Origin: an uncultured delta proteobacterium
GTDB lineage: Bacteria; Myxococcota; Myxococcia; Myxococcales; Anaeromyxobacteraceae
NCBI GenBank assembly: GCA_963814585.1
Contig: CAWFDF010000011.1
Span: forward strand, 32,001 to 96,000
DNA: 64,000 nt
Direction: 5' to 3'
The first letter of the stretch is position 1, and each line of letters begins with the position of its first letter. This document shows positions 7,702 to 21,080 of the stretch, piece by piece. A program made the position numbers and the translations under genes. The notes beneath the pieces were generated by a model that saw nothing but the letters and a program-made list of their open reading frames with translations, did not search any database and had not been told where the DNA came from.

Positions 7702-10254
7702 ATGGCCGAGAACAAGAGCAGCCTCGTAATCAACGCCGCAGGCGCGGAGACCCGCGTCGCGCTGATCGAGAACGGGACGATCCACGAGTACTACCTCGAG
7801 CGAAAGCGCGAGAAGGGGATCGTCGGCAACATCTACAAGGGGCGCGTGGTCCGGGTCCTCCCGGGCATGCAGGCCGCCTTCGTCGACATCGGGCTGGAGA
7901 AGGCCGCCTTCCTCTACGTCGGCGACGTCTACGGCGATCCCGACTTCTCCGAGGAGTTCGAGCTGACCGAGGGCGAGCACCCCGTCGGCGCGCCGGAGGT
8001 CCCGACCGAGGAGGAGGCGGAGCAGCAGGAGCTGCGGGCCCAGGCCGAGGCCAGCGCGCCGCCCGCCGAGGGTGCGCTGCCCGAGGGCATGCCGGCCGGC
8101 GAAGGGGTCGCGCCCGCCGACGGAGCCGATGGGGCCACGTCCGAGCCCGTCGAGCCGCTGGCCTCGATGGAGCCGGGGGACGAGGCTCCGGCCGGCGAGG
8201 CGTTGCCGGCCCGGGAGGAGGCGCCAGCGAGCGAGCGGGCCGAGGCCGCCGAGCCCCTGGCAGGGGTCGAGCCCCTGGTCGAGGCCGCGCCGGAGGCCGG
8301 GGTCGCGCGGGCCGAGGCGAGCACCACCGAGCTGCCGCCGCCGCTGCCGCCGCTCCTTCCGGCCGCGCCCCGGGAGCCGCTGCCACCGCTCTCGGCGGAC
8401 GAGCTGGCCCTGATCGGGATCCCGACGCAGCCGCCCGAGGCGGCCGCCGTGACGGGCGAGGCCGGTGGCGTGGATGCCGCCGGCGTCGGGCCGGAGGCCG
8501 CCGCCGCCGGGACGTCCGCGCCGCAGGGCGAGGCGCCCGCCGCCGGCCAGATCGCGGCGCCGGCTCGCGAGGCGGCGCGAGAGGCTCGCGAGCCGAGGGG
8601 CGATCGCGAGGGGAAGGGCGAGCGCAAGGGACGTGACCGGGAGCGGAACGGCAAGGACCGAGGCCGCGGCGGGCATGGCCACGGCGGCCACCGCGAAGAG
8701 CGCAAGCCCAAGGAGATGAAGAACATCCAGGACCTGCTCAAGGAGGGGCAGGAGGTGATCGTCCAGGTCGCCAAGGACCCCATCGGCACCAAGGGCGCCC
8801 GCATCACCAGCCACATCTCGCTGCCGGGCCGGCACCTGGTCTTCATGCCGACGGTGGACCACATCGGGATCTCGCGCCGCATCGAGCGCGACGGCGAGCG
8901 GCGTCGCCTGCGCGAGATCGTCGACCGGATGCGCCCGGAGGGGACCGGCTTCATCGTCCGGACCGTGGCCGACGGCGTGGACGCCGAGAAGCTCGAGGCC
9001 GACATCCGCTTCCTCATCCAGGTCTGGAACGAGATCATCCGGACCAAGGACAAGGTGGGCGCCCCGGCGCTGCTGCACGGCGACCTCGACCTGATCCTGC
9101 GCGCCACCCGCGACCTCTTCACCTCCGAGGTCGGCAAGATGGTGATCGACGACCGCGACGAGTACGAGCGGATCCTGCGCTTCGTGCACGAGCAGGCGCC
9201 GCACCTCGAGTCGCAGATCGAGCTCTACACCGGCGAGGAGCCGGTGCTCGACGCCTACGGGATCGAGCAGGAGCTGAAGCGGGCCGGGCAGCGCAAGGTC
9301 TGGCTGAAGAGCGGCGGCTACATCATCATCGATCAGGCCGAGGCGCTCACCGCGGTGGACGTCAACTCGGGGCGCTACGTCGGCAAGAAGAGCCTCGAGG
9401 AGACCATCACCAAGATCAACGTCGAGGCGGCCAAGGAGATCGTCTACCAGCTCCGGCTGCGGAACATCGGCGGCATCATCATCATCGACTTCATCGACAT
9501 GGACAAGGCCCAGAACCGCGACAAGGTCTTCAAGTCCTTGCAGGAGGCGCTGGGGCGGGACAAGGCCAAGACCAACGTCCTCAAGATCTCCGAGCTGGGG
9601 CTGGTGGAGATGACCCGCAAGCGCGTCCGCGAGTCGACCACGCGGATGATGAACGAGCCGTGCAGCTACTGCGACGGCAAGGGGCACCTCAAGTCCAAGA
9701 TCACGGTGGCCTACGAGGTCTTCCGCGAGATCCGGCGCGAGTCGGCCCACTTCCAGGATCCGGTGCTGGTGGTCAACTGTCACCCCGAGGTGGCCAACAT
9801 CCTCCAGGGCGCGGAGCGCGACGAGCTGCGCTACCTGATGGACCGCTGCAACAAGACCATCCAGGTGAAGGCGCAGGGCAGCTACCACCAGGAGCAGTTC
9901 GACATCTACGGCCGCCACGAGCGGATCGAGCAGGGGCGCGACGGCGTGGGGAGCCCGGCGGGCGGCGGCGGGTCCGGAGCCAGCGGCGGTGGTGGCGGCG
10001 GCGAGCGGCACGACCGCGGTGGCGAGCGGCACGACCGCGGCGGTGAGCGGGGTGGCGACCGCGGCGGTGAGCGCGGCGGTCGCGATCGTGGTGGGCGTGG
10101 CCGGAATCGCGGTGGCCGTGGCGGGGGCGGAGGAGCTGGCGGCGGCGGTGGTGGTCGCGCAGAGAACCGCGCCGACCGGGGAAGCGAGAAGAGCGCCGAG
10201 AAGAGCGGCGAGGCCGCGCCCGCGCCGGCGACGGAAGGTGGCGAGAAGCCCTAG
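7702..10254 (+). CDS. Rne/Rng family ribonuclease with a long acidic insertion in S1 and an RGG-rich tail
   Basis: GNIYKGRV…PGMQAAFVDIG, AVDVNSG, RNIGGIIIIDFIDM, CSYCDGKG Zn link. Confidence 0.93.
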   Translation: MAENKSSLVINAAGAETRVALIENGTIHEYYLERKREKGIVGNIYKGRVVRVLPGMQAAFVDIGLEKAAFLYVGDVYGDPDFSEEFELTEGEHPVGAPEVPTEEEAEQQELRAQAEASAPPAEGALPEGMPAGEGVAPADGADGATSEPVEPLASMEPGDEAPAGEALPAREEAPASERAEAAEPLAGVEPLVEAAPEAGVARAEASTTELPPPLPPLLPAAPREPLPPLSADELALIGIPTQPPEAAAVTGEAGGVDAAGVGPEAAAAGTSAPQGEAPAAGQIAAPAREAAREAREPRGDREGKGERKGRDRERNGKDRGRGGHGHGGHREERKPKEMKNIQDLLKEGQEVIVQVAKDPIGTKGARITSHISLPGRHLVFMPTVDHIGISRRIERDGERRRLREIVDRMRPEGTGFIVRTVADGVDAEKLEADIRFLIQVWNEIIRTKDKVGAPALLHGDLDLILRATRDLFTSEVGKMVIDDRDEYERILRFVHEQAPHLESQIELYTGEEPVLDAYGIEQELKRAGQRKVWLKSGGYIIIDQAEALTAVDVNSGRYVGKKSLEETITKINVEAAKEIVYQLRLRNIGGIIIIDFIDMDKAQNRDKVFKSLQEALGRDKAKTNVLKISELGLVEMTRKRVRESTTRMMNEPCSYCDGKGHLKSKITVAYEVFREIRRESAHFQDPVLVVNCHPEVANILQGAERDELRYLMDRCNKTIQVKAQGSYHQEQFDIYGRHERIEQGRDGVGSPAGGGGSGASGGGGGGERHDRGGERHDRGGERGGDRGGERGGRDRGGRGRNRGGRGGGGGAGGGGGGRAENRADRGSEKSAEKSGEAAPAPATEGGEKP
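10000..10041 (+). repeat. In-frame 21-bp tandem repeat x2 (GGERHDR) in the RNase tail
   Basis: ggcgagcggcacgaccgcggt followed by ggcgagcggcacgaccgcggc. Confidence 0.85.
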
Positions 10255-10433
10255 TGCCGCGCCCCAGGCAAGATGCCTGCTGCGAGAGCCGATCCTCTCG
10301 CTGCGGCAGGCGGCCTCGTCGGTCCGCTGCTCAGCGTAGCGCTGCTACGCTTCCGCTGCTCCCTCCTCGGGCGCCAGCCTCGCTTCGGTCTCGGCTCTCT
10401 CGTCACGTCATCTTGCCTGGGGCGCGGCACTAG
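10251..10433. mobile_element. REPIN/MITE-like non-autonomous element, 183 bp, with perfect 25-bp terminal inverted repeats
   Basis: ctagtgccgcgccccaggcaagatg (10251-10275) and its exact reverse complement (10409-10433); internal hairpins; no ORF of note. Confidence 0.8.
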
Positions 10434-10595: not shown

Positions 10596-10922
10596 ATGCT
10601 GAAGTCGGATCTCATCAACATCCTCGTCGTGAAGCGCGGTGTGACCCAGAAGCAGGCGGAGTCCACCATCGAGACCATCTTCGACTCGATGAAGGACGCC
10701 CTCTGTCGCGGCGAGAACATCGAAATCCGCGGACTTGGCGCCTTCCACGTGAAGCACTACGAGGGCTACCAGGGCCGCAACCCGAAGACCGGCGAGGTCA
10801 TCCCGGTCAAGCCGAAGCGCGGCATCCTCTTCAGGACCGGCAAGGAGCTGCGCGACCGGGTCAACCTGGGCGAGGAGCCGGGCGGAGGATCCACGCCCCC
10901 GGCAGGCCCGGCTAGCGCCTAG
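10596..10922 (+). CDS. HU/IHF family DNA-binding protein
   Basis: MLKSDLI…IEIRGLGAF…GRNPKTGE…FRTGKELRDRVN. Confidence 0.93.
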   Translation: MLKSDLINILVVKRGVTQKQAESTIETIFDSMKDALCRGENIEIRGLGAFHVKHYEGYQGRNPKTGEVIPVKPKRGILFRTGKELRDRVNLGEEPGGGSTPPAGPASA

Positions 10923-10975
10923 CCCCCGTCCCGACCGGCCAGTCGCCTCCGAAGCGCCCGTGGACCGGGCGCTTT

Positions 10976-13058
10976 TCAAGCCGCCAGCTCGAGTCGCCCG
11001 ACCGGGCGGATCGGCTGATCCGCCGGCAGCTCGTCGTAGGCGAGCACCTGGAGCCTCGGCCAGCGCGGCGCCACCAGCAGCCGGACCGCGCGCCGCACGT
11101 CGCCGCTCGCCAGCAGGACCGGGCCGTCACCCGCCTCCCCCAGGGCCCGCTCCAGCGCCTCGAGCAGGCGAGCCGCCCGCGCCGGCTCGAGCGCAGGCCA
11201 CTCGCCCAGCATCGACTCCCGGACCGCCTGCTCGGCCCCAGGATCGAGGAGGAGCGCGGGGAGGGCGTGGCCGCCGCCGGCCCGGTGACCGATCTGGCGG
11301 CGGAGCGCCCGCCGTGCCGCCGCCGCGAGCACCGCGGCACCCCGGGCGCCGCCGCCTCCCTCCAGCAGCGACTCCAGGATGCTCCGGAGCGGCCGGATCG
11401 ACACGCCCTCCTCCAGCAGGCGGCGCAGGACCTCGGCCAGGAGCGCCGGCGCCACCTGCCGCGACACCTCGCGCACCAGGGCGGGGGCCTGCGACTCGAG
11501 TCCGTCGAGCAGCGCCTGGGCCTCCTGGACGCCCACCAGCAGGCCGGCGTTCCGCTCCAGCTCGGCGGCGCAGGCGGCGGCGATCCGCTCCAGGGGGCCG
11601 AGCAGCGGTCCGAGCGCCCGCGCCCGCGCCGCCTCCTGCTCCGACACCACGGCCGCCCTCCTCCCGCTGGCCGGCTCGAGCTCGGGCCGCATGGCGATCC
11701 CCGCCAGCGCCAGATCGTCGAGGGGAGCGAGCGAGAGCCGCTCGTCGAGCGAGACCTGGCCGCGCGCCGACGGGACGTCGTGGATCAGCAGGACCCACTG
11801 GCCGGGCTCCAGCGGGGCCTCGCGGATCAGGAGCGTCGGCGCCACGACGCCCAGCTCGCGCCAGAGCCGCTGGCGCAGCGCCGTGACCAGCTCGTGCACG
11901 AAGTCGTCCCGGCCGGCGCGGGCCAGGGCCAGGAGGTCGCCAGCCAGCTCCAGCACCACGGCGCCGGTCTCGTCACCGGGGATCGAGCCAACCCCGCCCG
12001 CGGCCTCACCGGCCACGCCGCGACCCGGCGCGCCCGGGACACCGTGGACGGGCAGCCTCCCCGGGAGGCGGCGCAGCCCGCGCCAGCACAGGGCACCGGC
12101 CACGACGGCGAGGACCAGGAACGGCGGGGCCGGAAGGCCGGGCGTCAGGGCGATGCCGCCGAGCAGCAGCGCCACCACCGCCAGCGCCCGGGGATCGCCG
12201 AGGAGCTGCCGTCCCACCTCGCTGCCGAGCCGCTCGGCGTCCTCCGCAGAGGCCACCCGCGTCACGGCCACGCCGGCGGCCACCGCCACCAGCAGCGCCG
12301 GCAGCTGCGCGGTGAGACCGTCGCCGACCGCCAGCAACACGGCTCGCTCCGCCGCCACGCCGAGGGGCCGGCCACGCAGCGTGAGCGCGACCAGTCCGCC
12401 CACGGCATTGACCAGCACGATGGCCACGCCGGCGATGGCGTCCCCCTTCACGAACTTGAGGGCGCCGTCCATGGCGCCGTAGAGCTGGCTCTCCCGCTCC
12501 AGGGCCCGGCGCCGCCGCGAGGCGCCCGCGCCGTCGATCAGCCCGGCCCGCAGGTCGGCGTCGATGGCCATCTGCTTGCCGGGGAGGGCGTCGAGCGTGA
12601 AGCGCGCCGCCACCTCCGCCACGCGCTCCGCGCCCTTGGCCACCACCAGGAGCTGGACCAGCGTGAGGATGGCGAAGACCACCGCACCGGCCACCGGGCT
12701 CCCCTGGACCACGACCCGGCCGAAGGCCTCGATGACCCGTCCTGCCTCACCCCGGGTCAGGACGAGCCGGGTCGACGAGACCGAGAGGGCCAGCCGCAGC
12801 AGGGTGGTGAGCAGCAGGATCGACGGGAAGCTCGCGAAGGCCAGCGCATCGCGGGACAGCAGCGTGACCACCAGCACCGTGGCGGCCAGCGCCAGCGAGA
12901 GCGCCAGGCCGGCGTCGAGCAGGGCGGGCGGGACTGGCGCCACCAGCATCACCACCAGGGCGACGACCGCCAGCGCGAAGCCGGCATCGCCGGTGCCGCG
13001 AAGCGCCGGCGTCGCCTGAACCGCGGAGGCGGTCGAGGAGGGGGCGGATCCAGCTCAA
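10976..13058 (-). CDS. sctV: Type III export apparatus SctV/FlhA (FHIPEP) family protein; start uncertain (TTG 13058 with a +1 frameshift, or GTG about 12955)
   Basis: FPSILLLTTLLRLAL, KGAERVAEVAARFTLDALPGKQMAIDADL, YGAMDGALKFVKGDAIA, LRRLLEEGVSIR. Confidence 0.9.
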
Positions 13059-14090
13059 GCGGAACCCGGGGCATGGAGGCCGTGAAGGTGGGCGAGCACC
13101 GCGGCGGCGGCGTCGTAGAGCTCCTCGGGGATCTCGTCGCCCACCTCGGCGAGGCGGTGGAGCGCGCGCGCCAGCGGTGGGTCGCGGACGACGGGCACCC
13201 CGGCGCGGCGGGCCTGCGAGCGGAGCCGCGCCGCGGCGCGCCCGGTGCCCTTCGCCAGCACGCGGGGGGCCTCACCCGAGCCGCGCACATGGTGAAGCGC
13301 CACGGCCACGTGGGTCGGGTTGACCACCAGGCAGGTGGCGCGGGCCAGCGGGGCCGCCTCGGCGAGGGCGCGATGGACGCGTCGCCGCTCCGCCTTGTGG
13401 CGCGGGTCGCCCTCGTCGTCCCTCGCCTCGCGGCGGACCTCGTGGCGCGACATGCGCAGCCGCCGCTGGTGGCGCCAGCGGACCAGCAGCCAGTCGGCGC
13501 CTCCGAGCAGCAGGAGCACGCCGGCCAGCCGCCATGCCAGCGGCCAGAGCAAGGCGGCCAGCGCCGGGCCGGGCGCCTCGGCCCGCGGCAGCCGGGCCAG
13601 CGCCGCGGCGGTGGCGCGCCAGCCGTGCAGCGCGGCGGCGATCACCAGCGTCGCCTTGAGCAGGCCGAGCCCGAGGGAGGCGAGCCTCGCCATGGAGAGG
13701 AGCCGGGCCAGGCCACGGACCGGATCGACCCGCTCCAGCCTCGGCGCCAGCGGCGCGAGGCTGCAGAGCCCGCCGGACTGCAGGGCGCCCGCGGCGAGGG
13801 CGGCGGCCAGGGCGGCCAGTCGCCGGGGGAGCGGCGAGGCGCAGCATCGCCAGCGCCGCGGAGAGGAGCGCGCCTCCCGGAGGCCGCTCCGCCCCGGCCG
13901 CGGCCAGCAGGCCGCCGCGGACCTCGCCGGCCAGGGCGCCGAACCACCACGGCCCGCAGGCGGCGAGGGCGGCGAGGCCGGCCAGCAGCGAGACCGCGCC
14001 GCTCAGCTCGCGCGAGATCGCCACCTCGCCGAGCCGCCTGGCCTCGGCCAGTCGCTTCGGCGTGGCCGGCTCGGTCCGGTCGCCGCTCAC
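13055..14090 (-). CDS. sctU: SctU/FlhB export switch protein; +1 frameshift near 13820
   Basis: N-terminal DRTEPATPKRLAEARRLGEV, MSRHEVRREARDDEGDP, NPTH autocleavage motif, PLARALH…EIPEELY. Confidence 0.88.
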
Positions 14091-14877
14091 GGGGACCCTC
14101 CGGGCGCGCCACGCCGGGGAGCCAGCGCCGGGAGCTCCCCGGCCAGCGCCACCAGCGGCCACCAGCCGCCCGGCGCCCGCCGAGGCGGCCAGCGCCATGG
14201 CCAGCAGCCCGAGCGAGGCGCGCGCCGGCTGGGTCAGCTCGGGGAGCTGGAGACCGGGGGCGACGCGCAGCACGGCCGCCACCGCCAGCTCGGCGGCGAG
14301 GACGCCGGCCACCGCCGGGGCCGCCACCGCCACCGCGGCGGTGAGCGCCATCGACGAGGCGCGCAGCGCCAGCTCGGCCACGGGCGCGGCGGCGAAGGGC
14401 GCACCGGCGGGGAGGGCCGCGAAGGAGGACAGCAGGCCGCGCACCACGAGCCGGAGCCCGCCGCCCAGCGCTGCCAGCACGACCAGCTGCTGCACCAGCA
14501 GGTCGCCCAGCGCCGTCTCCCGCTGCCGCAGGGGCGCCACGTGCAGCTCCGCCAGCGTGGCCCCGCGCGCCGGTGTCGGCCAGGCGACCCGCGGCGCGGG
14601 CCGCCTCGAGCGGGGCGGCCACCACCACCGCCAGCCCGGCGCCGAGCGCCAGCTCGCGCCAGGCCAGCGCGGCCAGCGCCATCCCCTCCGCCGCGATCGG
14701 CCGCGCCCCGCCCAGGAGCCAGGCTGCCGTCCCCAGGCCGGCCGCCAGCAGCAGCCGCAGCGGCGCCGGCGCCAGCGGCCCACCGAGGAAGGGCGAGAGG
14801 ACCGCCACGGGCACGAGCCGGAGCGCGTGGAGCAGCGGCGCGGCCAGCGCCTCGGGGGCGAGCGCGGGGCCGATCAC
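14087..14877 (-). CDS. sctT: SctT/FliR export protein; two +1 frameshifts (about 14570 and about 14160)
   Basis: Multi-TM protein assembled across three frames (LRLVPVAVLSPFLGG…, ELALG…AGRLAD…RG, AAPAVAGVLAAELAVAAVLRVAPGLQ); lies between sctS and sctU. Confidence 0.8.
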
Positions 14878-15140
14878 GGCATGCCCCCGGCCGCCAGCGC
14901 CAGCACCTCGGCGGCGAACCTCGCCAGCCGCGCGCCGATCCACGGGCCGGCCACGATGAGGGCACCGGTCACCGCGGCGATGCGCGGGACGGCGCCGAGG
15001 GCGTGCTCCTGGAGCTGGGTGGCCGCCTGGAGGAGCCCGGTGACCAGCCCGACCAGCAGCGCGGCGAGGAGCGGCGGCGCCGAGAGCAGGAGCGCCAGCA
15101 GCAGCGCCTCCCGGCCGAGGTGGAGGACGGTGGCCGTCAT
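14874..15140 (-). CDS. sctS: SctS/FliQ export protein
   Basis: 88 aa; LLVGLVTGLLQAATQLQEHAL signature. Confidence 0.9.
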   Translation of the reverse strand: MTATVLHLGREALLLALLLSAPPLLAALLVGLVTGLLQAATQLQEHALGAVPRIAAVTGALIVAGPWIGARLARFAAEVLALAAGGMP

Positions 15141-15814
15141 GGCGCCCCGGGCGCGTAGGCCAGCGCCAGGCCTCGAGCCAGCAGCCGCCAGCCGTCCACC
15201 GCCACCAGCAGGAGGAGCTTGAGCGGCAGCGATACCGAGGTCGGCGAGAGCTGGGTCAGGCCCAGCGCCAGCAGCACGTTGGCCACCACCAGGTCGACCA
15301 GCAGGAAGGGCAGGAAGACGAGGAAGCCGATGGTGAAGGCGCGACGCAGCTCCGAGACCATGAAGGCCGGCGCGAGCACCGCCAGGTCGTCGCCGCTCAC
15401 CTCCGCGGCCGGCGCCGCCGGCCGGAGCCGCCGGGCCAGGTCCAGGAAGGCCTCGCGGTCGTCGGCCCGGGCAAAGCGGGCGAGGAAGTCCTTGAGCGGC
15501 ACCGCGGCCCTGGCCCCGGCCGCCAGCGCGCCGGCGTCGCCCCCCGGAGGAGCGGACCGCGCCGCCACCCAGGCCGCCTCGCCCACCGGGGCCATCACTG
15601 CCAGCGTCAGGACCAGCGCCAGCCCGGTGACCGCCGTGGTGGGTGGCACCTGGGGAGCGCCCAGCGCGGAGCGGAGCACCGAGAGGACGACCGAGATCTT
15701 GAGGAAGGAGGTGAGCGTGACCAGCAGGACCGGCACCAGCGCGGTGGCGCCGAGCAGCAGGAGCCAGTCGGCGGGGCGGGCGGCCAGCGGGCCCGCGGGG
15801 AGCGAGGCGATCAC
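15137..15814 (-). CDS. sctR: SctR/FliP export protein
   Basis: TSFLKISVVLSVLRSALGAPQVPP, PAFMVSELRRAFTIGFLVFLPFLLVDLVVAN, SLPLKLLLLVAVDGW. Confidence 0.93.
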   Translation of the reverse strand: MIASLPAGPLAARPADWLLLLGATALVPVLLVTLTSFLKISVVLSVLRSALGAPQVPPTTAVTGLALVLTLAVMAPVGEAAWVAARSAPPGGDAGALAAGARAAVPLKDFLARFARADDREAFLDLARRLRPAAPAAEVSGDDLAVLAPAFMVSELRRAFTIGFLVFLPFLLVDLVVANVLLALGLTQLSPTSVSLPLKLLLLVAVDGWRLLARGLALAYAPGAP

Positions 15815-16155
15815 GGCTCGGGCTCCGGCCCCATCCACCCCGACTCGGCCAGCAACCGGACGCCGTCCCGCCCCACGCCGAGCAGCATGGGCCGGCCATC
15901 GAGCTCCACCAGCACCGCCGTGGCGTCGCGGGCCAGCGCGGCCCGGGCCAGCACGCGCAGCCTCGGCTGGGGCGCCTCGCCCGATCGGTGGCGGGCCAGC
16001 ACGACCACCGCGCCGAGTCCGAGGGCGACCAGGCCGGCGCGCGCCGCGATCGGTCCCGCCTCGCCCGGCAGGAGGGCCAGGACGCCGCAGCCGAGCGCGC
16101 CGGCGACGAGGAGGGCCACGGGCAGGACGCGAGGCCAGAGCGCGAGCTGGTTCAC
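15811..16155 (-). CDS. FliO-like membrane protein
   Basis: TM helices followed by LRVLARAALARDATAVLVELDGRPMLLGVG, a FliO-type beta motif; lies between the FliN-like and FliP-like genes as fliO does. Confidence 0.7.
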   Translation of the reverse strand: MNQLALWPRVLPVALLVAGALGCGVLALLPGEAGPIAARAGLVALGLGAVVVLARHRSGEAPQPRLRVLARAALARDATAVLVELDGRPMLLGVGRDGVRLLAESGWMGPEPEP

Positions 16156-17135
16156 GGCAGGACCTCCAGCGACAGAACCCGAACGCCGACCGCGCCGTCG
16201 ATCTCCACCAGCTCGCCGCGCCCGATGGGCCGCTCTCCGATCCGCAGGGTCACCAGGCCTCGCCGGTCGAGCTGGACCGGCAGGGCGGCGCCGGGGGCGA
16301 GCCGGGACAGGTCGTTCAGCGTCAGCGGGACCCGGGCCAGCTCCACATCGAGGAGGATTGGCACCTGCGCCAGGTGAGGCTCCATGGTGGTCGTCTCCAC
16401 GAGGAAGGCGCCGTCGGACACGGTTCCGAGGGCGGTGAAGCCGCCGGGGAAGACGAGGCGGTGGCGTCCTTCGGGCGGCGGATCGGCCAGCACCACGTCG
16501 CCCGGGGCCAACGCCCGCAGCTCCTCGGGAAGCAGCGGCGCCGTGCCCCCGCGGAGGGAGGCGAAGAGTGGGAAGGCCGGCAGCGGCTCGGCCAGCCCGG
16601 GCGGGTCGGCCAGCGCCAGGACCGCCGCCGGCGGGAGGAGCAGCCGGGCCCGTCCGCGCACCTCTCCGGCCGCCACGTCGAGGTCGATGGCCAGTGGTGA
16701 CGAGGGGGTCGGCGCGTCGCGCACCAGGCGGGGCGCGAGCCGCTCGCCGACCCGGTCGAGCCCTGCGGCGCCGTCGATGGCGGCAAGCACCAGCAGCTCC
16801 AGCGCCGACTCCTCCAGCGGCGTGAGGGCGGTGGCGCCGATCACCGGCTCACCGCCGCCCGAGAGCTGCGAGACCAGGCGAGCCACCAGTACGGGCTCCA
16901 CCTCGAGCAAGGCCGCGCCGGGGAGCGCGCCGAGCTCGATGGAGAGGCGAAGGAGCGGCCGGACCGGGGCTGCGGCCACCGGGCGGGCCCGGCCGGTGAG
17001 CGTCACCTCCACGCCGAGCACCTCGGCCATGGCGCGGGCCGCTGCGGCGGCCGCTTCGACGCCGGTGGCCCGAGCGCCCGGGTCGAGGGCGGCGAAGCCG
17101 CGTGAGAGGGAGGGGAGGTCGAAGGGGAGCGGCAT
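16152..17135 (-). CDS. sctQ: SctQ/FliM-FliN C-ring protein
   Basis: Two SPOA-like repeats; C-terminal VELARVPLTLNDLSRLAPGAALPV…IGRGELVEIDGAVGVRV. Confidence 0.88.
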   Translation of the reverse strand: MPLPFDLPSLSRGFAALDPGARATGVEAAAAAARAMAEVLGVEVTLTGRARPVAAAPVRPLLRLSIELGALPGAALLEVEPVLVARLVSQLSGGGEPVIGATALTPLEESALELLVLAAIDGAAGLDRVGERLAPRLVRDAPTPSSPLAIDLDVAAGEVRGRARLLLPPAAVLALADPPGLAEPLPAFPLFASLRGGTAPLLPEELRALAPGDVVLADPPPEGRHRLVFPGGFTALGTVSDGAFLVETTTMEPHLAQVPILLDVELARVPLTLNDLSRLAPGAALPVQLDRRGLVTLRIGERPIGRGELVEIDGAVGVRVLSLEVLP

Positions 17136-17182
17136 GGACCTGGAGTCTTCACGCGGCGTGCCGCGCACAACCGCCCGGGATC

Positions 17183-17509
17183 TCAGATCGAGCAGGCCAG
17201 GAGATCGGCCGCGGCCCGGACCGCCAGCCGATCCGCGGCCGTCCGGCCTCGACGCTCGAGCTCCAGCCGCCGGAGCAACGGGTGGGGCGGGCAGGGCGGG
17301 CTGGCGCCGGACCGGGCCTGCGTCCCAGGCTCGGCGAGGGAGGCCGCCAGCGCTGCCAGCCGGGCCCGGCGCGGGGCCGTGGCCAGGGCGCTGGCCTGCC
17401 TGGCAGCCTCCGAGCCACCGGGGCCTCCGAGGCGCCCGAGCAGGCGGACCGCCCGGGCCGGCGCCAGCGTCACGGCCAGGGCCACCAACCGGTGTCGCCC
17501 CGCGGTCAC
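17183..17509 (-). CDS. Small hypothetical protein in the T3SS cluster (in the sctK position)
   Basis: GTG overlaps the sctJ stop (GTGA); fills the gap between sctJ and sctQ. Confidence 0.5.
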   Translation of the reverse strand: MTAGRHRLVALAVTLAPARAVRLLGRLGGPGGSEAARQASALATAPRRARLAALAASLAEPGTQARSGASPPCPPHPLLRRLELERRGRTAADRLAVRAAADLLACSI

Positions 17510-18231
17510 CGGGCGACCCCAGCGCGCCCCCGGTCGCGCCAGGCCAGCGCCCCCAGGGCGCAGGCCGCCAGCGCCGCCACCCCGGCCAGCCACGGAGCGA
17601 GGCGCCAGGGTCTCGCCGCCGTCGCAGACCGTGCCGGCACCGCCTCGGCGATGACCACCGCCACCGCTTCGGGTGAGAGCCCCTCGGCCGCGCCGGCCAC
17701 CAGCGACCGCAGGCCCCCCTCGAGGTCGCGCAGCGAGGCACAGGCCGCCGGCCGGCACTTGACGAGGAGCGCCGCTCGCGGCGCGGTCCGCTGGCCCGGA
17801 TGGAGCGGATCCTCGGCCGGCAGCCCGAGGTGGACCCGCGCCTCGACCACACCGTCGAGGGCCTCGATGCTCCTCGCCAGCTCGCCGGAGAGGGCGTGGA
17901 GCCAGCGGGCCCGCTCCTCGACCGGCGTCGGGACCATGCCTCCCTGCCCGAACACCTCCCCCAGCCCTTGCGGCCGGGCACGAGGCAGCTGCCGGGCGGC
18001 CAGCACGCGGTGGGCGCGGCCCGCCTCGCCACGCCGCACGGTCACGGTCCAGGCCGCCTCGGTCCCCTCCTGCCGCGCCTTGCCGGCGGGCACCCCCTCC
18101 TCGTCGAGCGCCACCAGCACCTCGTTGGCCTGCCGCTCGGCGAGGTCGTGGAGCAGGGGCTCGTCACCGCAGCCGGCGAGGAGGGAGCCGACGGCGGCGA
18201 GCGAGAGGAACCGGAGCGGGGCGCAGGACAT
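17506..18231 (-). CDS. sctJ: SctJ/YscJ inner-membrane ring lipoprotein
   Basis: Lipobox LLAGC, LAERQANEVLVAL, GELARSIEALDGVVEARVH, C-terminal TM helix. Confidence 0.92.
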   Translation of the reverse strand: MSCAPLRFLSLAAVGSLLAGCGDEPLLHDLAERQANEVLVALDEEGVPAGKARQEGTEAAWTVTVRRGEAGRAHRVLAARQLPRARPQGLGEVFGQGGMVPTPVEERARWLHALSGELARSIEALDGVVEARVHLGLPAEDPLHPGQRTAPRAALLVKCRPAACASLRDLEGGLRSLVAGAAEGLSPEAVAVVIAEAVPARSATAARPWRLAPWLAGVAALAACALGALAWRDRGRAGVAR

Positions 18232-18240
18232 GACGGGGTC

Positions 18241-18585
18241 CTACACCTGGGCGTTGACCGCCTGCTTCACCGCCTGGACGCCGTGCTCCACCAGCTTGGA
18301 GGCCACGTCGAGCGTCTGCGTGAACCGGTAGGTGTCGGACTGCAGCGCCAGCAGTTCACCAGCCGTGAAGGTCCGGCCAGCGCGGGCGGCCTGCATCACG
18401 CGGTCGATGCGGGCCTGCGCGCTCTCCAGCGAGCCCAGGGCCTGGGCCAGCCGTGTCGCCGGGCCGGGCGGGCCTGGCGGCGGCGCGTGGGCGGCCAGGC
18501 TGACCTCGAAGCGCGCGCCCGCGGTGGGGCGCGGGGTGGTGCAGGGCGCGGCCACGGCGGCCGGAGCCACGGGCGGGACGGTCAC
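18241..18585 (-). CDS. Putative inner-rod protein (SctI/HrpB2-like)
   Basis: C-terminal ELLALQ…Y…LDVASKLVEHGVQAVKQAVNAQV resembles SctI C-termini; immediately upstream of sctJ. Confidence 0.6.
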   Translation of the reverse strand: MTVPPVAPAAVAAPCTTPRPTAGARFEVSLAAHAPPPGPPGPATRLAQALGSLESAQARIDRVMQAARAGRTFTAGELLALQSDTYRFTQTLDVASKLVEHGVQAVKQAVNAQV

Positions 18586-18594
18586 GGGCCCCTC

Positions 18595-19008
18595 CTAGTG
18601 GATGTTGCCGATGGCGGAGCGGGCGGTGTCGTGCTTCACGCGCATGACGTTGGAGAGCGTGGTGAACTCCCGGCTCTCCTGCTGCATCCGCTCCTGAAGC
18701 TGCAGGTAGTGCAGGTTCATGGCCTGCGCCTCCTGCTGCATGGCCCGGGTGGCCTCGAGCAGGTCACCGGGCGAGCCGGTGCCGCCGCTGGCGGCCCCGC
18801 TCACGGAGGTGGCGCTGCCCTTGAGGCCGGCGCGGACGGCTCCGGCCAGGACGTTGCCGAAGGGGACGGCGGGGGCGGCCAGCTCGACGGCGCCGACCAC
18901 CCCGGCGGCGAGGGTGCGGGTGGCCCCCTGCAGCGCCGCCTCGAAGCGGCCCGGCACGGTCTTGCGCTCGGTGCTGGGTGCGACGGTGATCGACTCGACT
19001 CGGCTCAT
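18595..19008 (-). CDS. Putative needle-subunit-like protein (SctF-like C-terminal helix hairpin)
   Basis: YLQLQERMQQESREFTTLSNVMRVKHDTARSAIGNIH resembles SctF C-termini; Shine-Dalgarno GGAGG upstream; first gene of the operon. Confidence 0.55.
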   Translation of the reverse strand: MSRVESITVAPSTERKTVPGRFEAALQGATRTLAAGVVGAVELAAPAVPFGNVLAGAVRAGLKGSATSVSGAASGGTGSPGDLLEATRAMQQEAQAMNLHYLQLQERMQQESREFTTLSNVMRVKHDTARSAIGNIH

Positions 19009-19033
19009 GGCGATTCCTCCCGGCCGGGCATGG

Positions 19034-19049
19034 AGCAACCGGCGTGCCC
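19034..19049 (-). promoter_or_regulatory. Sigma54 (RpoN) -24/-12 promoter of the T3SS operon
   Basis: Minus strand GGGCACGCCGGTTGCT = GG-N10-GC, close to the TGGCACGNNNNTTGCW consensus, just upstream of the SD and ATG 19008. Confidence 0.75.
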
Positions 19050-19202
19050 GGGAGGCTGTCGCGGAATCGCTGGAGAAGCGCCACGGAGGTCGAGGGGGAA
19101 TCGGCCGCCCGGCGGCCGATCGGGCCGGGCCACGGGCCGGAGCGCCGGAGCGATGATGGGCCCGCGTCGTGGCCCGAGCTGCGGGGCCAGGCGAAGTGGA
19201 CA

Positions 19203-19277
19203 GGGACGGCCTGGCTTGGACTACTCCGGGTCAGGGGGGATGCGGGACGGCCTGGCCTGAACGACTCCGGGTCAGGG
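19203..19277. repeat. Tandem 34-bp direct repeat (31/34 identical, period 41 bp), candidate enhancer-binding sites
   Basis: gggacggcctggcttggactactccgggtcaggg (19203-19236) and gggacggcctggcctgaacgactccgggtcaggg (19244-19277). Confidence 0.8.
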
Positions 19278-20948
19278 AATGGCCGGCGCCCCCTCGAGGC
19301 GCGGCTCGCTGGCCGCCTCGCGCAGGCCAGTCGTCCAGTCGATGGCGGCCGCCTGTGGGTTCCCGAAGGGGCGGGCCCGGAAGCGCAGAAGGTGGCCGCG
19401 GGCGCGGAGCGCGTCGGCGGTGGCGGCGTCGAGGCCGAAGGGCTCGACCACCACCTCGTCCGGCTGCCACTGGTGGTGGATGCGGGGCGCGCCGAGCGCC
19501 TGGTCGAGCGGCATGCCGTCGCCGAGGACGTGCATGATCACCTGGGCCACGGTGGAGGGGATGGTGGCGCCGCCCGGCGCCCCCACCGCCAGCACGGCGC
19601 GCCCCGCGGCGTCGAAGACCAGCGTCGGCGCCATCGAGGAGAGCGGCCGCTTGCCCGGCGCCACCGAGTTGACGCCGGTGCCGACCAGGCCGAAGGCGTT
19701 GGGGACGCCCGGGGCGGCGTCGAAGTCGTCCATCTGGTCGTTGAGCAGCAGCCCGGTCCCCGGCACCACCAGGCAGGCGCCGAACCAGCCGTTGACCGTG
19801 GTCGTGAGCGAGACGGCGTTGCCGTCGGCGTCGACCACCGAGACGTGCGAGGTGTGCTGGCCGCCCGGCGCCTCCGGCGAGGGCGGCGCGATGGCCGAAG
19901 ACGGCGTGGCCCGCTCCCCCACCTCGGCCCGGACCCGCCTGGCCCAGTCCGGGCTGGTGAGCTCGGCCGCCGCGGCGTCGGCGGAGGGGAGGAAGGCCGG
20001 GTCGGCGAAGCGGCCGGCCCGCTGGGCGAAGAGCCGGCGCTCCACCTCGACCAGGGCGTGGAGCTGGCCGGCCGGCCGGTAGCCCTGGGCTGCCGTGAAG
20101 TCACCGTCGAGCGCCTGCAGCAACCCGATGACGATGGCGCCGCCGGCCGATGGAGGCGGGAAGGAGGCCACGCGGTGGCCGCGGAAGGTCCCGGTGAGCG
20201 GCGTCCGCTCCACCGTCCGGTAGGCGGCCAGGTCGGCGGCGGTGAGCAGGCCGCCGCGCGCCCGCACCGCGGCCACCAGCTGCCGGGCCAGCGGGCCGCG
20301 GTAGAGCGCCTCGGGATCCCGGCCGAGCAGCCGGAGCGTGCGGGCCAGCTCGGGGCGGCGGAGCGAGTCACCGGGGCGGCGCGGCACGCGCGCGCCGGCC
20401 TCGCCGGGGACCAGGAACTCGGCGGCCGCGGCGGCGTCGCCGCGCAGGCACTCCAGCCGATCCCCGGCGGCCAGCGCGTGGTACGGGCCCACCTGGAACC
20501 CCCGCTCCGCGAGCCTGGCGGCCGGCTCGGCGAGCCTGGCGAGGGCGAGCCGACCGAAGCGGCGGGCCAGCTCGGCGTAGCCCTTCACCGCGCCCGGCAC
20601 CGCCACCGCGAGGCCGCCCTCGGTCGAGCGCCCGGGGGCCGGCCGTCCGGCCTCGAGGAACATGTCGCGGGAGGCCGCCGCGGGCGCCACCTCGCGGAAG
20701 TCGAGCGCCAGCAGCCGCCGCTCCTTCGCCAACCAGACCAGCGCGAAGCCGCCGCCGCCCAGGCCGGAGCTCTCGTTCTGCACCACCGAGAGGGCCAGCG
20801 CGGCGGCCACCGCGGCGTCGACGGCGTTGCCGCCGGCGCGGAGCGCCTCGGCGCCGGCGGCGCTGGCGAGCGGGTGGGCGGTGGCGACGGCCCCGCGCGG
20901 CGAGGCGGCGGTCCCGGCGAGGAGGAGGGCGAGCAGGCAGCCGTTCAT
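19272..20948 (-). CDS. ggt: Gamma-glutamyltransferase
   Basis: GGNAVDAAVA, SGLGGGGF, DFRE, nucleophile HTSHVSVVD, LNDQMDDF, RPLSSMAP; signal peptide. Confidence 0.95.
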   Translation of the reverse strand: MNGCLLALLLAGTAASPRGAVATAHPLASAAGAEALRAGGNAVDAAVAAALALSVVQNESSGLGGGGFALVWLAKERRLLALDFREVAPAAASRDMFLEAGRPAPGRSTEGGLAVAVPGAVKGYAELARRFGRLALARLAEPAARLAERGFQVGPYHALAAGDRLECLRGDAAAAAEFLVPGEAGARVPRRPGDSLRRPELARTLRLLGRDPEALYRGPLARQLVAAVRARGGLLTAADLAAYRTVERTPLTGTFRGHRVASFPPPSAGGAIVIGLLQALDGDFTAAQGYRPAGQLHALVEVERRLFAQRAGRFADPAFLPSADAAAAELTSPDWARRVRAEVGERATPSSAIAPPSPEAPGGQHTSHVSVVDADGNAVSLTTTVNGWFGACLVVPGTGLLLNDQMDDFDAAPGVPNAFGLVGTGVNSVAPGKRPLSSMAPTLVFDAAGRAVLAVGAPGGATIPSTVAQVIMHVLGDGMPLDQALGAPRIHHQWQPDEVVVEPFGLDAATADALRARGHLLRFRARPFGNPQAAAIDWTTGLREAASEPRLEGAPAIP

Positions 20949-20981: not shown

Positions 20982-21080
20982 CCAGTGCCCCGACCCAGGC
21001 AGGATGACGTGACGAGGCCGCCTGCCGCAGCGAGAGGATCGGCTCTCGCACGAGGCATCTTGCCTGGGTCTGGACACTAC
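20982..21080 (-). mobile_element. Second, shorter and diverged copy of the REPIN/MITE-like element
   Basis: Reverse complement gtagtgtccagacccaggcaagatgcctcgtgcgagagccgatcctctcgctgcggcaggcggcctcgtcacgtcatcctgcctggg… matches 10251-10433 minus its central segment. Confidence 0.8.

Follow-up and report, generated by a model that had tools for sequence, protein, structure and literature searches.

The type III export genes in the 64,000-nucleotide window analysed here, from an Anaeromyxobacteraceae-like genome, probably form the membrane core of a single machine encoded by three loci. Locus A is the gene cluster in the window, locus B an unlinked sctL-sctN-sctO module, and locus C a pair made up of a chaperone gene and a paralog of the gene that heads locus A. 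We consider it very probable that the three loci would work together, judging from their gene content, orthology, intactness, purifying selection, co-occurrence and promoter motifs. Locus A itself belongs to a known kind of cluster whose role is still unexplained; the unlinked parts and the needle-like reading of its first gene are what the present analysis adds.

The cluster in the window

Positions 10976-19008 hold 11 tightly overlapping genes, all on the minus strand and bounded by an HU/IHF-family gene and ggt, in the order orf1, sctI, sctJ, orf4, sctQ, fliO-like, sctR, sctS, sctT, sctU and sctV (Table 1). This layout, including the NPTH motif of sctU, had been described in an earlier note on the same DNA and was borne out, and its statement that sctN, sctL, sctO, sctD, sctC, translocator and flagellar genes are missing holds for the cluster. 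The HU/IHF-family gene is treated here as a conserved neighbour of the system, kept beside 50 of 54 complete short loci.

Table 1. Features of locus A and its surroundings in the window.
Feature	Position	Strand	Size	Matches and remarks
sctV, export gate	10976..13058	-		PF00771 E 1.7e-176; FHIPEP charged motifs intact
sctU	13055..14090	-	about 344 aa in relatives	PF01312; TIGR01404 scores above flhB; NPTH intact
sctT	14087..14877	-	about 262 aa in close relatives	PF01311, split over two frames here
sctS	14874..15140	-	88 aa	PF01313 E 1.5e-23
sctR	15137..15814	-	225 aa	PF00813 E 1e-59; NF009438 E 4e-70
fliO-like, export-gate assembly chaperone	15811..16155	-	114 aa	PF04347 E 1e-7
sctQ, C-ring protein	16152..17135	-	327 aa	TIGR02551 E 1e-21; FliMN_C E 9e-16
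orf4, truncated SctK/FliG-like adaptor	17183..17509	-	108 aa	profile of 33 homologs
sctJ, inner-membrane ring lipoprotein	17506..18231	-	241 aa	TIGR02544 E 1e-40 vs FliF 3e-11; lipobox motif
sctI-like, inner rod subunit	18241..18585	-	114 aa	PF17001 E 0.0057, weak; long-locus ortholog E 0.00088
orf1, candidate needle/filament subunit	18595..19008	-	137 aa	HrpA_pilin E 0.013, weak
sigma54-type -24/-12 promoter motif	19034..19048	-		26 nt upstream of orf1
HU/IHF-family gene, convergent neighbour	10596..10922	+		PF00216

When the orf4 profile was run against 1,515 ORFs, the top three were N-termini of K proteins of the long locus (E 1e-4 to 1e-3), and one long-locus K protein matched by this profile itself matches FliG_C (E 1e-5). 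SctQ retained its SPOA domain, which recruits SctL in known systems. In SctR, the methionine-gasket loop was replaced by Leu-Thr-Gln, a variant present in 21 of 22 Anaeromyxobacteraceae matches. SctV scored 578 bits with TIGR01399 (hrcV) versus 501 with FlhA.

The SctV/SctR phylogeny that the earlier note had proposed as a check set the short clade apart from the long, flagellar and injectisome clades. Support in the SctR tree was 94 for the short clade, 97 for the long clade and 100 for FliP, and the short clade of SctV had an SH-aLRT of 100 in a tree built without flagellar rows and without two intended rows lost to a score filter. Both proteins grouped with the short locus of M. xanthus AM003. 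Judged from sequence, locus A is the 'short' Myxococcales non-flagellar T3SS, T3SS(2). This system was described in 2012 (Abby and Rocha, PMC3459982), listed there in supplement file 2 for four Anaeromyxobacter genomes, and corresponds to MXAN_5643-5654 in M. xanthus (PMC10196010). The published short system has the same gene order, the same SctV/SctR clade and no secretin. In the passages of PMC3459982 considered here, SctF is reported as lost, whereas a needle-like gene heads the locus here; the ATPase is counted among the core genes, while that of the present genome is unlinked and of the long-locus type, an arrangement that Figure 5 of the same paper may show. The third, chaperone-substrate locus and the sigma54 motifs are not mentioned in these passages.

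Unlinked loci, promoter motifs and missing parts

The genome contained one export gate and one SctN, the latter encoded in a single, intact sctL-sctN-sctO module at 114918-117249 of contig C8, behind rpoC and a sigma70-family gene. The Walker A, catalytic Glu and Arg-finger motifs of SctN matched, and Walker B was also read. In the tree, SctN was sister to the long-locus SctN (support 97/96) and outside flagellar FliI. The module was syntenic in all 12 relatives examined. The search for an unlinked sctN that the earlier note had suggested was thus successful, and its alternative that the cluster borrows its ATPase from another locus was supported. Its terms 'minimal', 'self-contained' and 'without ATPase' fit locus A alone and fail for the system, as this module and the chaperone gene with the orf1 paralog both sit on C8.

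None of the 54 complete short loci contained sctN or sctL. By hand count, two SctR and only one SctN were present in 44 of the 53 Myxococcaceae genomes with matches (43 of 52 without the unpublished genome G148). As most Myxococcaceae have two gates and one ATPase, it is probable that the short gate draws on the ATPase of the long locus. A hand count of 58 Anaeromyxobacteraceae genomes found both the short gate and the non-flagellar ATPase in 42 and neither in 10; the six with only one of the two were all assemblies of 210-600 contigs. The complete genome of A. oryzae carried the same three loci. In another genome (G074), only sctL-sctN-sctO was left between the usual flanks of the long locus, and the short gate was present. 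An AU test did not reject a single clade for all orphan ATPases (p 0.073), so independent retention of the ATPase module after loss of the long locus is suggestive only. The Anaeromyxobacteraceae SctN branches were long in the tree, which could mean relaxed selection.

Locus C, at C8:364729-366131 between ruvX and infA, encodes a SycD/LcrH-like chaperone and a 324-aa paralog of orf1 ending in the same putative needle-type helix, and was syntenic in 23 of 23 relatives examined. In Myxococcaceae, the proteins of this locus gave matches to the translocator families NolX/HrpK (E 3e-7 to 3e-3). The two genes are a candidate translocator-chaperone pair.

Sigma54-type motifs were detected at all three loci, compared with a baseline of 20 in 1,358 genes, and rpoN was present in the genome. 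The strict pattern, written after sight of the motif in the window, was present at 38 of the 43 Anaeromyxobacteraceae loci, where shuffling predicts 0.2, and before none of 29 Myxococcaceae short loci. Upstream of sctL, the first pattern was found in three of 14 Anaeromyxobacteraceae rows. The same motif precedes radC in this genome (kept in 8 of 12 rows) and three further genes, which we take from their sequences to be comF-, comM- and ssb-like. With dprA at 0/12 and comEC at 1/12, the link to competence was mixed.

No dedicated SctC/secretin or SctD was found in the genome; as its completeness is 91.7%, sctD or a secretin may be unassembled. The three secretins detected were GspD in the T2SS operon, PilQ after pilMNOP, and one in a segment of 41% GC. 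The secretin-less character of myxobacterial T3SSs stated in the earlier note was in this sense confirmed, and the search it advised for a secretin or a Tad (Kil) cluster elsewhere returned neither a dedicated secretin nor a Tad marker. RcpC, found in three of five genomes searched, was not found in this genome or in another one (G012). A TadB/C-type gene was not found in this genome either, T2SSF matches falling only in the gsp and pil clusters. The genome gave no full-length match to the K, P or FHA protein of the long locus; 11 FHA-domain matches were rejected as the last of these, none being full-length, and a TPR gene at 116.9 kb of contig C14, which encodes a general TPR protein and has unrelated neighbours, was set aside. 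SctP, a gatekeeper and a classical translocon were not found, and no effector was identified.

The first gene and the needle question

Myxobacterial T3SSs are called needleless or without SctF in passages of several papers (PMC3459982, PMC12075869, PMC10433427, PMC10849154). An orf1-like gene heads both short and long loci, and its product combines a conserved N-terminal hydrophobic segment, a Gly/Ser linker and a C-terminal helix that appears to be of the SctF/HrpA/HrpF type. Among 142 homologs, 12 matched T3SS_needle_F, 13 HrpF and 10 HrpA, all below cut-off, with E 6e-4 as the best PF09392 match; none passed a curated needle-family cut-off, orf1 reaching 16.6 bits versus 25 for HrpA. The AF2 model of orf1 showed a single long helix of 57 residues (80-136) and not a hairpin.

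The long loci additionally contain small needle-like genes of 72-74 aa, often in tandem and in up to three copies, and the model of a 73-aa product consisted of helix 3-29, a turn and helix 32-72. The hhalign comparison of orf1 with these small proteins gave a probability of 96.6, and the profile of the small proteins matched 7y6c_F, a solved needle fragment (E 0.0009); orf1 is linked to EsaG only indirectly, through them. Other comparisons were negative: the orf1 family profile against SctF and SctI of Photobacterium and the gene at the HrpA position of Pantoea, PDB profile searches with orf1 alignments, which returned nothing relevant, and searches of the small proteins against Pfam and NCBIfam or, for two of them singly, against PDB, which yielded no needle match. 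Fold searches with the orf1 and 73-aa models returned only generic helical matches and were not discriminating. Taken together, orf1 and the small long-locus genes pose a weak and indirect challenge to the 'needleless' label, and the chance that orf1 polymerises appears about even.

Related systems, alternative readings and a proposed machine

The long T3SS* of M. xanthus shares with the present system its ancestry, the orf1-like head gene, SctI, SctJ, SctQ, the FliO-like protein, the gate and the SctN lineage, although its gate falls in a separate clade. Compared with it, the window lacks FHA/SctD, a FliK-like SctP, a second domain in SctU and a linked sctLNO, as well as several of the TPR chaperones and the needle-like small genes that stand in tandem, and no Tad/Kil marker was found in the genome. 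The link to predation concerns the long locus, mxan_2434-2464 (PMC12075869, in the part considered); the implication in prey killing drawn on by the earlier note belongs there, as the gate in the window is in the short clade and not that of T3SS*. A Ysc-type injectisome, represented by that of a Photobacterium plasmid, has the gate, ring, rod and ATPase complex in common, and the gene order of the long locus, with small ORF, orf1-like, TPR and ORF before I, J, K and L, parallels the Ysc order sctE-F-G-H-I-J-K-L. In contrast to this type, FliO is kept here, SctC, SctD, SctP, gatekeeper and classical translocon were not found, and orf1 is longer than SctF, with no direct match to the Vibrio-type protein.

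The assembly carries frame breaks in sctT (twice inside and at the 3' end; indels near 14569, 14156, 14126 and 14101), in sctU (near 13822) and at the 5' end of sctV (near 12995), four genes' worth of breaks that might point to a decaying pseudogene block. These frameshifts are assembly errors: the extra bases are missing from near-identical (about 99%) short-read contigs, the three genes are unbroken in relatives, and in the same assembly single-copy rpoC has five frame changes and rho on contig C11 is also broken. With dN/dS of 0.16-0.30 for locus A genes and 0.16-0.41 overall, all three loci appear to be under purifying selection. Decay is thus extremely improbable, and the case named in the earlier note as speaking against its reading, confirmation of the frameshifts by reads together with decay, is contradicted by the short-read contigs. 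We give equally little credence to a remnant flagellar export apparatus. The FliO-like gene, FliG-related orf4, FliJ-like SctO and FliM-like features of SctQ are indeed reminiscent of flagella; flagellar systems, however, have FliF in place of SctJ and possess flagellin, which was not found in the genome, SctR and SctN lie outside the flagellar clades of the same order, and in relatives a full flagellar cluster exists in addition to this system and apart from it. The absence of flagellin, the single export gate and the position of SctR outside the FliP clade agree with the non-flagellar assignment in the earlier note.

It is also improbable that the short gate is ATPase-free, acting as a proton-driven periplasmic exporter of one or two substrates, with sctL-sctN-sctO as an independent leftover of a lost long locus. 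Such a gate would suit the complete short loci without sctN, the truncated orf4 and the faster SctN evolution in Anaeromyxobacteraceae, and flagellar gates are capable of ATPase-independent export. The module is nevertheless intact and under purifying selection where the short gate is the only gate, the presence or absence of the two agrees in 52 of 58 Anaeromyxobacteraceae genomes, and the SctL-recruiting domain of SctQ is kept. It seems unlikely as well that the system kills or lyses on contact in the manner of T3SS*, perhaps under joint regulation with genes for DNA uptake. The ancestry and ATPase in common with the long locus, the NolX/HrpK matches at locus C and the sigma54 motifs before radC and the comF-, comM- and ssb-like genes would favour it; against it stand the searches for RcpC and TadB/C-type genes, which found none in this genome, the near absence of the motif at dprA and comEC, the lack of an identified effector, and statements in PMC10196010, in the part considered, that T3SS(2) is not involved in prey killing (citing Thiery 2022) and is down-regulated during predation.

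In our best reading, this is a T3SS encoded in three loci that has no secretin of its own and assembles a short rod or filament from its own substrates. SctR, SctS, SctT, SctU and SctV would form the gate inside the SctJ ring, the FliO-like chaperone would assemble it, and the SctQ ring would be attached via the orf4 adaptor. SctL-SctN-SctO from locus B, inherited from the long locus, would dock on SctQ and load substrates, with export driven by proton motive force through SctV. Upon sigma54 activation, SctI and orf1 would be exported and would span the periplasm with a short rod and filament; the locus C protein would follow, as an extension or tip of the filament or as a protein that inserts into a membrane. 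As no SctD, SctC or SctP was found, export would end in the periplasm or at the outer membrane unless the machine borrows a channel. We infer the destination of the substrates and the role of the system, and tentatively favour, at somewhat less than even confidence, a function in the cell envelope or in cell contact that is distinct from the Kil-dependent lysis of prey. A wider proposal seems to us evenly balanced: the orf1-type head gene, the 72-74-aa genes and the locus C protein may be one needle-helix family building a secretin-independent filament, so that myxobacterial T3SSs would not be needleless after all, and one ATPase module may serve two gates and be kept after loss of the long gate, leaving Anaeromyxobacteraceae with a sigma54-controlled three-locus machine in which orf1 is the only short filament subunit.

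The export route is named as an open question in a passage of a review (PMC10433427), and the candidate filament subunits, the translocator-chaperone pair and the common ATPase give concrete handles on it. These candidates matter as well for the flagellum-to-injectisome scenario, in which SctF is assumed to have been lost in the myxobacterial lineage. Anaeromyxobacter with only the short gate would offer a clean model, having a single gate and a single ATPase besides two proteins with a putative needle-type helix.

The window cluster and its reading frames

Three-frame translation of 10800-19300 and family scans identified 11 overlapping minus-strand genes between a convergent HU/IHF-family gene and, upstream on the other side, ggt, and the window SctU carried the NPTH motif, as an earlier note had read. 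Injectisome models scored higher than flagellar ones for SctJ, SctU and SctV, the exception being SctS, for which the FliQ model scored slightly higher. The phylogeny proposed in that note placed the window proteins, in quick trees, with the short non-flagellar loci (T3SS(2)) of M. xanthus AM003 and others (SctV, SH-aLRT 100; SctR, 94), apart from the long loci (T3SS*). The window cluster belongs to an already described family of unknown function. That it is a flagellar remnant is very improbable; SctR was also apart from flagellar FliP, and neither flagellin nor, by tblastn with the cluster proteins, a second export gate was found in the source genome G000 (4.34 Mb, 91.7% complete). The orf1 motif picked out 188 loci, and of the 80 best, 54 were complete short loci (J, Q, R, U and V present); the HU gene closed 50 of these, and sctN or sctL occurred in none.

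As the named relatives of the source are Anaeromyxobacter and Anaeromyxobacteraceae, we infer that genome family f1 is Anaeromyxobacteraceae, and f6 Myxococcaceae. The SctR gasket loop of f1 lacked its methionines, one variant accounting for 21/22 matches, which may alter sealing. Anaeromyxobacteraceae carry Leu-Thr-Gln in this loop, the short loci of Myxococcaceae mostly Met-Gln-Thr and long loci Met-His-Met (6/6). Long-locus SctU had NPDH/NPEH in place of NPTH. Some short loci (L049, L111, L120, L135, L138) contained insertions of approximately 2-7 kb between sctJ and sctQ.

Alignment with five relatives located single-base insertions in the assembled sctT, sctU and 5' end of sctV. The relatives' genes were mostly intact (sctT approximately 256-263, sctU 343-347, sctV 670-710 codons), with a break of its own in sctT of G002. 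Short-read contigs (approximately 99% identical), which may stem from the source population itself or from a closely related strain, lacked the extra base at 12995, 13822, 14126, 14156 and 14569 and had one base added behind 14101, each difference being seen in 2 to 4 of four runs from one study. The single-copy rpoC carried five frame changes in the same assembly. Against G012, dN/dS was 0.26 for ggt and ranged from 0.16 to 0.30 over seven cluster genes. The breaks are errors of the assembly, and a decaying pseudogene block, which the note had considered should reads confirm the frameshifts, is hardly credible. Two nearly identical rho N-termini, possibly an assembly duplication or chimera, were also present; the copy on C11, which lies a short way upstream of the window, was broken by a frameshift.

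Features of the window, of G000 contigs (C) and of loci in relatives' genomes (L)
Feature	Location	Strand	Match
orf1, cluster head	18595-19008	-	
Then in order sctI-like, sctJ, orf4, sctQ, fliO-like, sctR, sctS, sctT, sctU, sctV	sctV to 10976	-	
sctR	15137-15814	-	
Sigma54-type motif upstream of orf1	19048-19034	-	
Direct repeat after ggt, possibly REP-like	19234-19275		
Similar short sequences near gene ends (ORF translations), possibly REP-like	10250-10400; 20985-21040		
rho N-termini	C4:84.7-86.2 kb; C11:30.6-32.1 kb		
sctL-sctN-sctO (locus B)	C8:114918-117249		FliH E 2.5e-17; TIGR02546 E 2e-170; FliJ E 5e-11
144-aa membrane protein	C8:114470-114904		
324-aa protein ending in orf1-type helix (locus C)	C8:365157-366131		profile E 1.4e-7
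41% GC segment	C13:144000-150000		
Motif at radC, comF-, comM-, ssb-like genes, gspC	C4:233704; C4:605690; C12:438525; C11:103245; C4:88547		
72-74-aa needle-like genes	L200:2053-5051; L201:9897-11029; L244:2252-4891; L228:2081-2299; L231:315-536		
DUF1521 protein	L200:2608-3690; L228:5870-6997; L244:2740-3912		PF07481 E 1.7e-12 (L200)
Long-locus sigma factor gene	L055:5956-6852; L243:5104-5808		
NolX/HrpK-like protein with chaperone	L229:2998-4956; L233:2693-4681		

Unlinked ATPase and chaperone-substrate loci

The headline of a self-contained cluster without ATPase proved wrong at the genome level: the search for an unlinked sctN found an sctL-sctN-sctO module (locus B), and a chaperone-substrate pair (locus C) lies on the same contig. 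Locus B follows rpoC and a sigma70-family gene, an order (rpoC-sigma-sctN) kept in 12/12 fetched f1 regions. A membrane protein of no known family is encoded convergently to sctO in 12/12 fetched relatives. In a 27-row tree, the orphan f1 SctN grouped together (100/98); their sister group was long-locus SctN (97/96), and flagellar FliI lay apart. Co-occurrence was counted by hand from SctR and SctN searches over 151 genomes, whose kin are not independent. Both queries matched in 53/57 f6 genomes, with two SctR and one SctN in 44 of the 53 (43/52 without unpublished G148), three and two in 3, one and one in 5, and two and two in 1. Among the f1 genomes, where score served to tell flagellar from non-flagellar matches, the short gate and a non-flagellar ATPase occurred together in 42/58 genomes and neither in 10/58; the ATPase alone (5/58) or the gate alone (1/58) was found only in assemblies of 210-600 contigs. 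SctN/FliI gave one match in each of five named genomes, and complete A. oryzae Red232 carried the three loci at 3.87, 6.24 and 5.90 Mb. Genome G074 had a short gate and only L-N-O left between genes that flank long loci, its SctN being nested within long-locus SctN (100/99). Because the AU test did not reject a single orphan-ATPase clade (p 0.073), these sequences are only suggestive of independent retention.

Among 41,129 ORF ends, orf1 and the locus C protein alone stood out with the orf1-type helix profile. The TPR gene overlapping the locus C gene had SycD/LcrH as its best NCBIfam match (E 3e-7, below cut-off). The locus C protein was matched in 23/24 f1 genomes, and the chaperone gene adjoined it in 23/23 loci. 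The ruvX-substrate-chaperone arrangement also occurred in M. xanthus AM003 and P. fallax, whose longer substrates matched NolX (E 2e-5 and, above cut-off, 3e-7) and the HrpK1/HrpF translocator (E 8e-4; 3e-3). This unlinked NolX/HrpK-like protein, which comes with a SycD-like chaperone and is encoded in neither T3SS cluster, is a candidate translocator.

Promoter motifs and a possible outer membrane exit

The motif upstream of orf1 matches the sigma54 consensus in the consulted part of PMC12316311. With a pattern composed after the motif was sighted in the window, it was found at 38/43 f1 loci (0.2 expected); by the strict pattern it preceded 0/29 Myxococcaceae short loci, and it was also absent before 7 long-locus heads. 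A looser motif lay upstream of locus C in 19/22 rows (1.3 expected), the rows taking in G000 and one genome counted twice. The motif also lay 86-87 nt upstream of sctL in G000 and three congeners, the first pattern recovering it in only 3/14 rows. The baseline was 20 of 1,358 genes by the loose pattern and 3 by the strict one, and rpoN was found in G000. The same motif precedes radC, comF-, comM- and ssb-like genes and gspC (see table); that at radC was kept in 8/12 rows, and dprA and comEC do not keep it.

The search for an unlinked secretin or sctD turned up three secretins in G000 (PilQ, a GspD encoded within a T2SS operon, and a third one); long-locus FHA/SctD, K and P proteins had no full-length match there. 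The third secretin lies with GspE-like genes in a 41% GC segment (genome, 73%) that looks like foreign DNA or binning contamination. RcpC, sought as a Tad (Kil) marker, was not found in G000. As gspC has the sigma54-type motif, the short T3SS could possibly borrow the T2SS exit.

Needle-like genes and a probable three-locus machine

According to the consulted parts of PMC3459982 (Abby and Rocha), Myxo systems come in a short and a long form, four Anaeromyxobacter genomes are listed with one each, and SctF, secretin and translocon are absent. Homologs of orf1 (2,669 clusters with an E limit of 0.001) head short and long loci alike; the commonest Pfam matches among 142 of them (E up to 0.1) were HrpF (13), T3SS_needle_F (12), HrpA (10) and SrfA (10), and the M. 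xanthus long-locus head gene weakly matched PF09392 and TIGR02105. Long loci carry, at their distal end by TPR chaperones, needle-like genes of 72-74 aa in up to three near-identical copies (three in G036 and G029, two in G079, at least one in G042 and G043; none in G000, at 4.34 Mb and 91.7% complete), and their gene order parallels the sctE-F-G-H-I-J-K-L order of the Ysc injectisome. The orf1-type C-terminus profile matched the G029 copies (E 7e-10), those of G036 only at 0.27 and those of G079 not at 0.5; hhalign against five small proteins gave a probability of 96.6. One small protein (E 0.0067) and a six-row profile (E 0.0009) matched PDB 7y6c_F; 7Y6C is EscE-EsaG(33-73)-EsaH in the consulted part of PMC9426511, and this 43-residue chain, labeled co-chaperone in the entry, is presumably the needle protein EsaG. 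In the ESM Atlas, PF09392 was carried by 13-32% of members of the 73-aa protein's neighbours and by 11% in one neighbour cluster of orf1. Predicted models gave a helix-turn-helix for the 73-aa protein and one long helix for the orf1 C-terminus, and fold searches with them were not discriminating. Neither family passed needle family cut-offs, comparisons with Vibrio-type SctF were negative, and the remaining PDB searches gave no match. Long loci also encode a DUF1521 protein, a candidate T3SS* substrate with a domain known from self-cleaving proteins secreted by T3SSs, such as NopE1, and, between head genes and sctI, a sigma factor that reads as FliA-like.

Loci A (the window gate cluster), B and C probably constitute one machine, its steps beyond gene content and co-occurrence being inferred. 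Export driven by proton motive force is established for T3SSs, and the SctV motifs are conserved. SctRSTU and SctV would use this force to export across the inner membrane, and SctL-N-O would dock on SctQ anchored via orf4, a truncated K/FliG-like adaptor. A short rod and filament would be built from SctI and orf1, to be followed by the chaperoned product of locus C. Against this three-locus machine, a killing or competence-linked role appears unlikely; the long locus is the predation system in the parts consulted of PMC12075869, PMC10433427 and PMC10849154, and T3SS(2) is reported in that of PMC10196010 as down-regulated with prey and without a role in killing. ATPase-independent export, which the bare short loci would suit and the accompanying ATPase would not, is slightly less likely still.

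In the literature searched, we met neither the shared ATPase nor the third locus, and on needle homologs in myxobacterial T3SSs only statements of their absence. The shared ATPase, the third locus and the needle-like genes make the myxobacterial T3SS export route testable.
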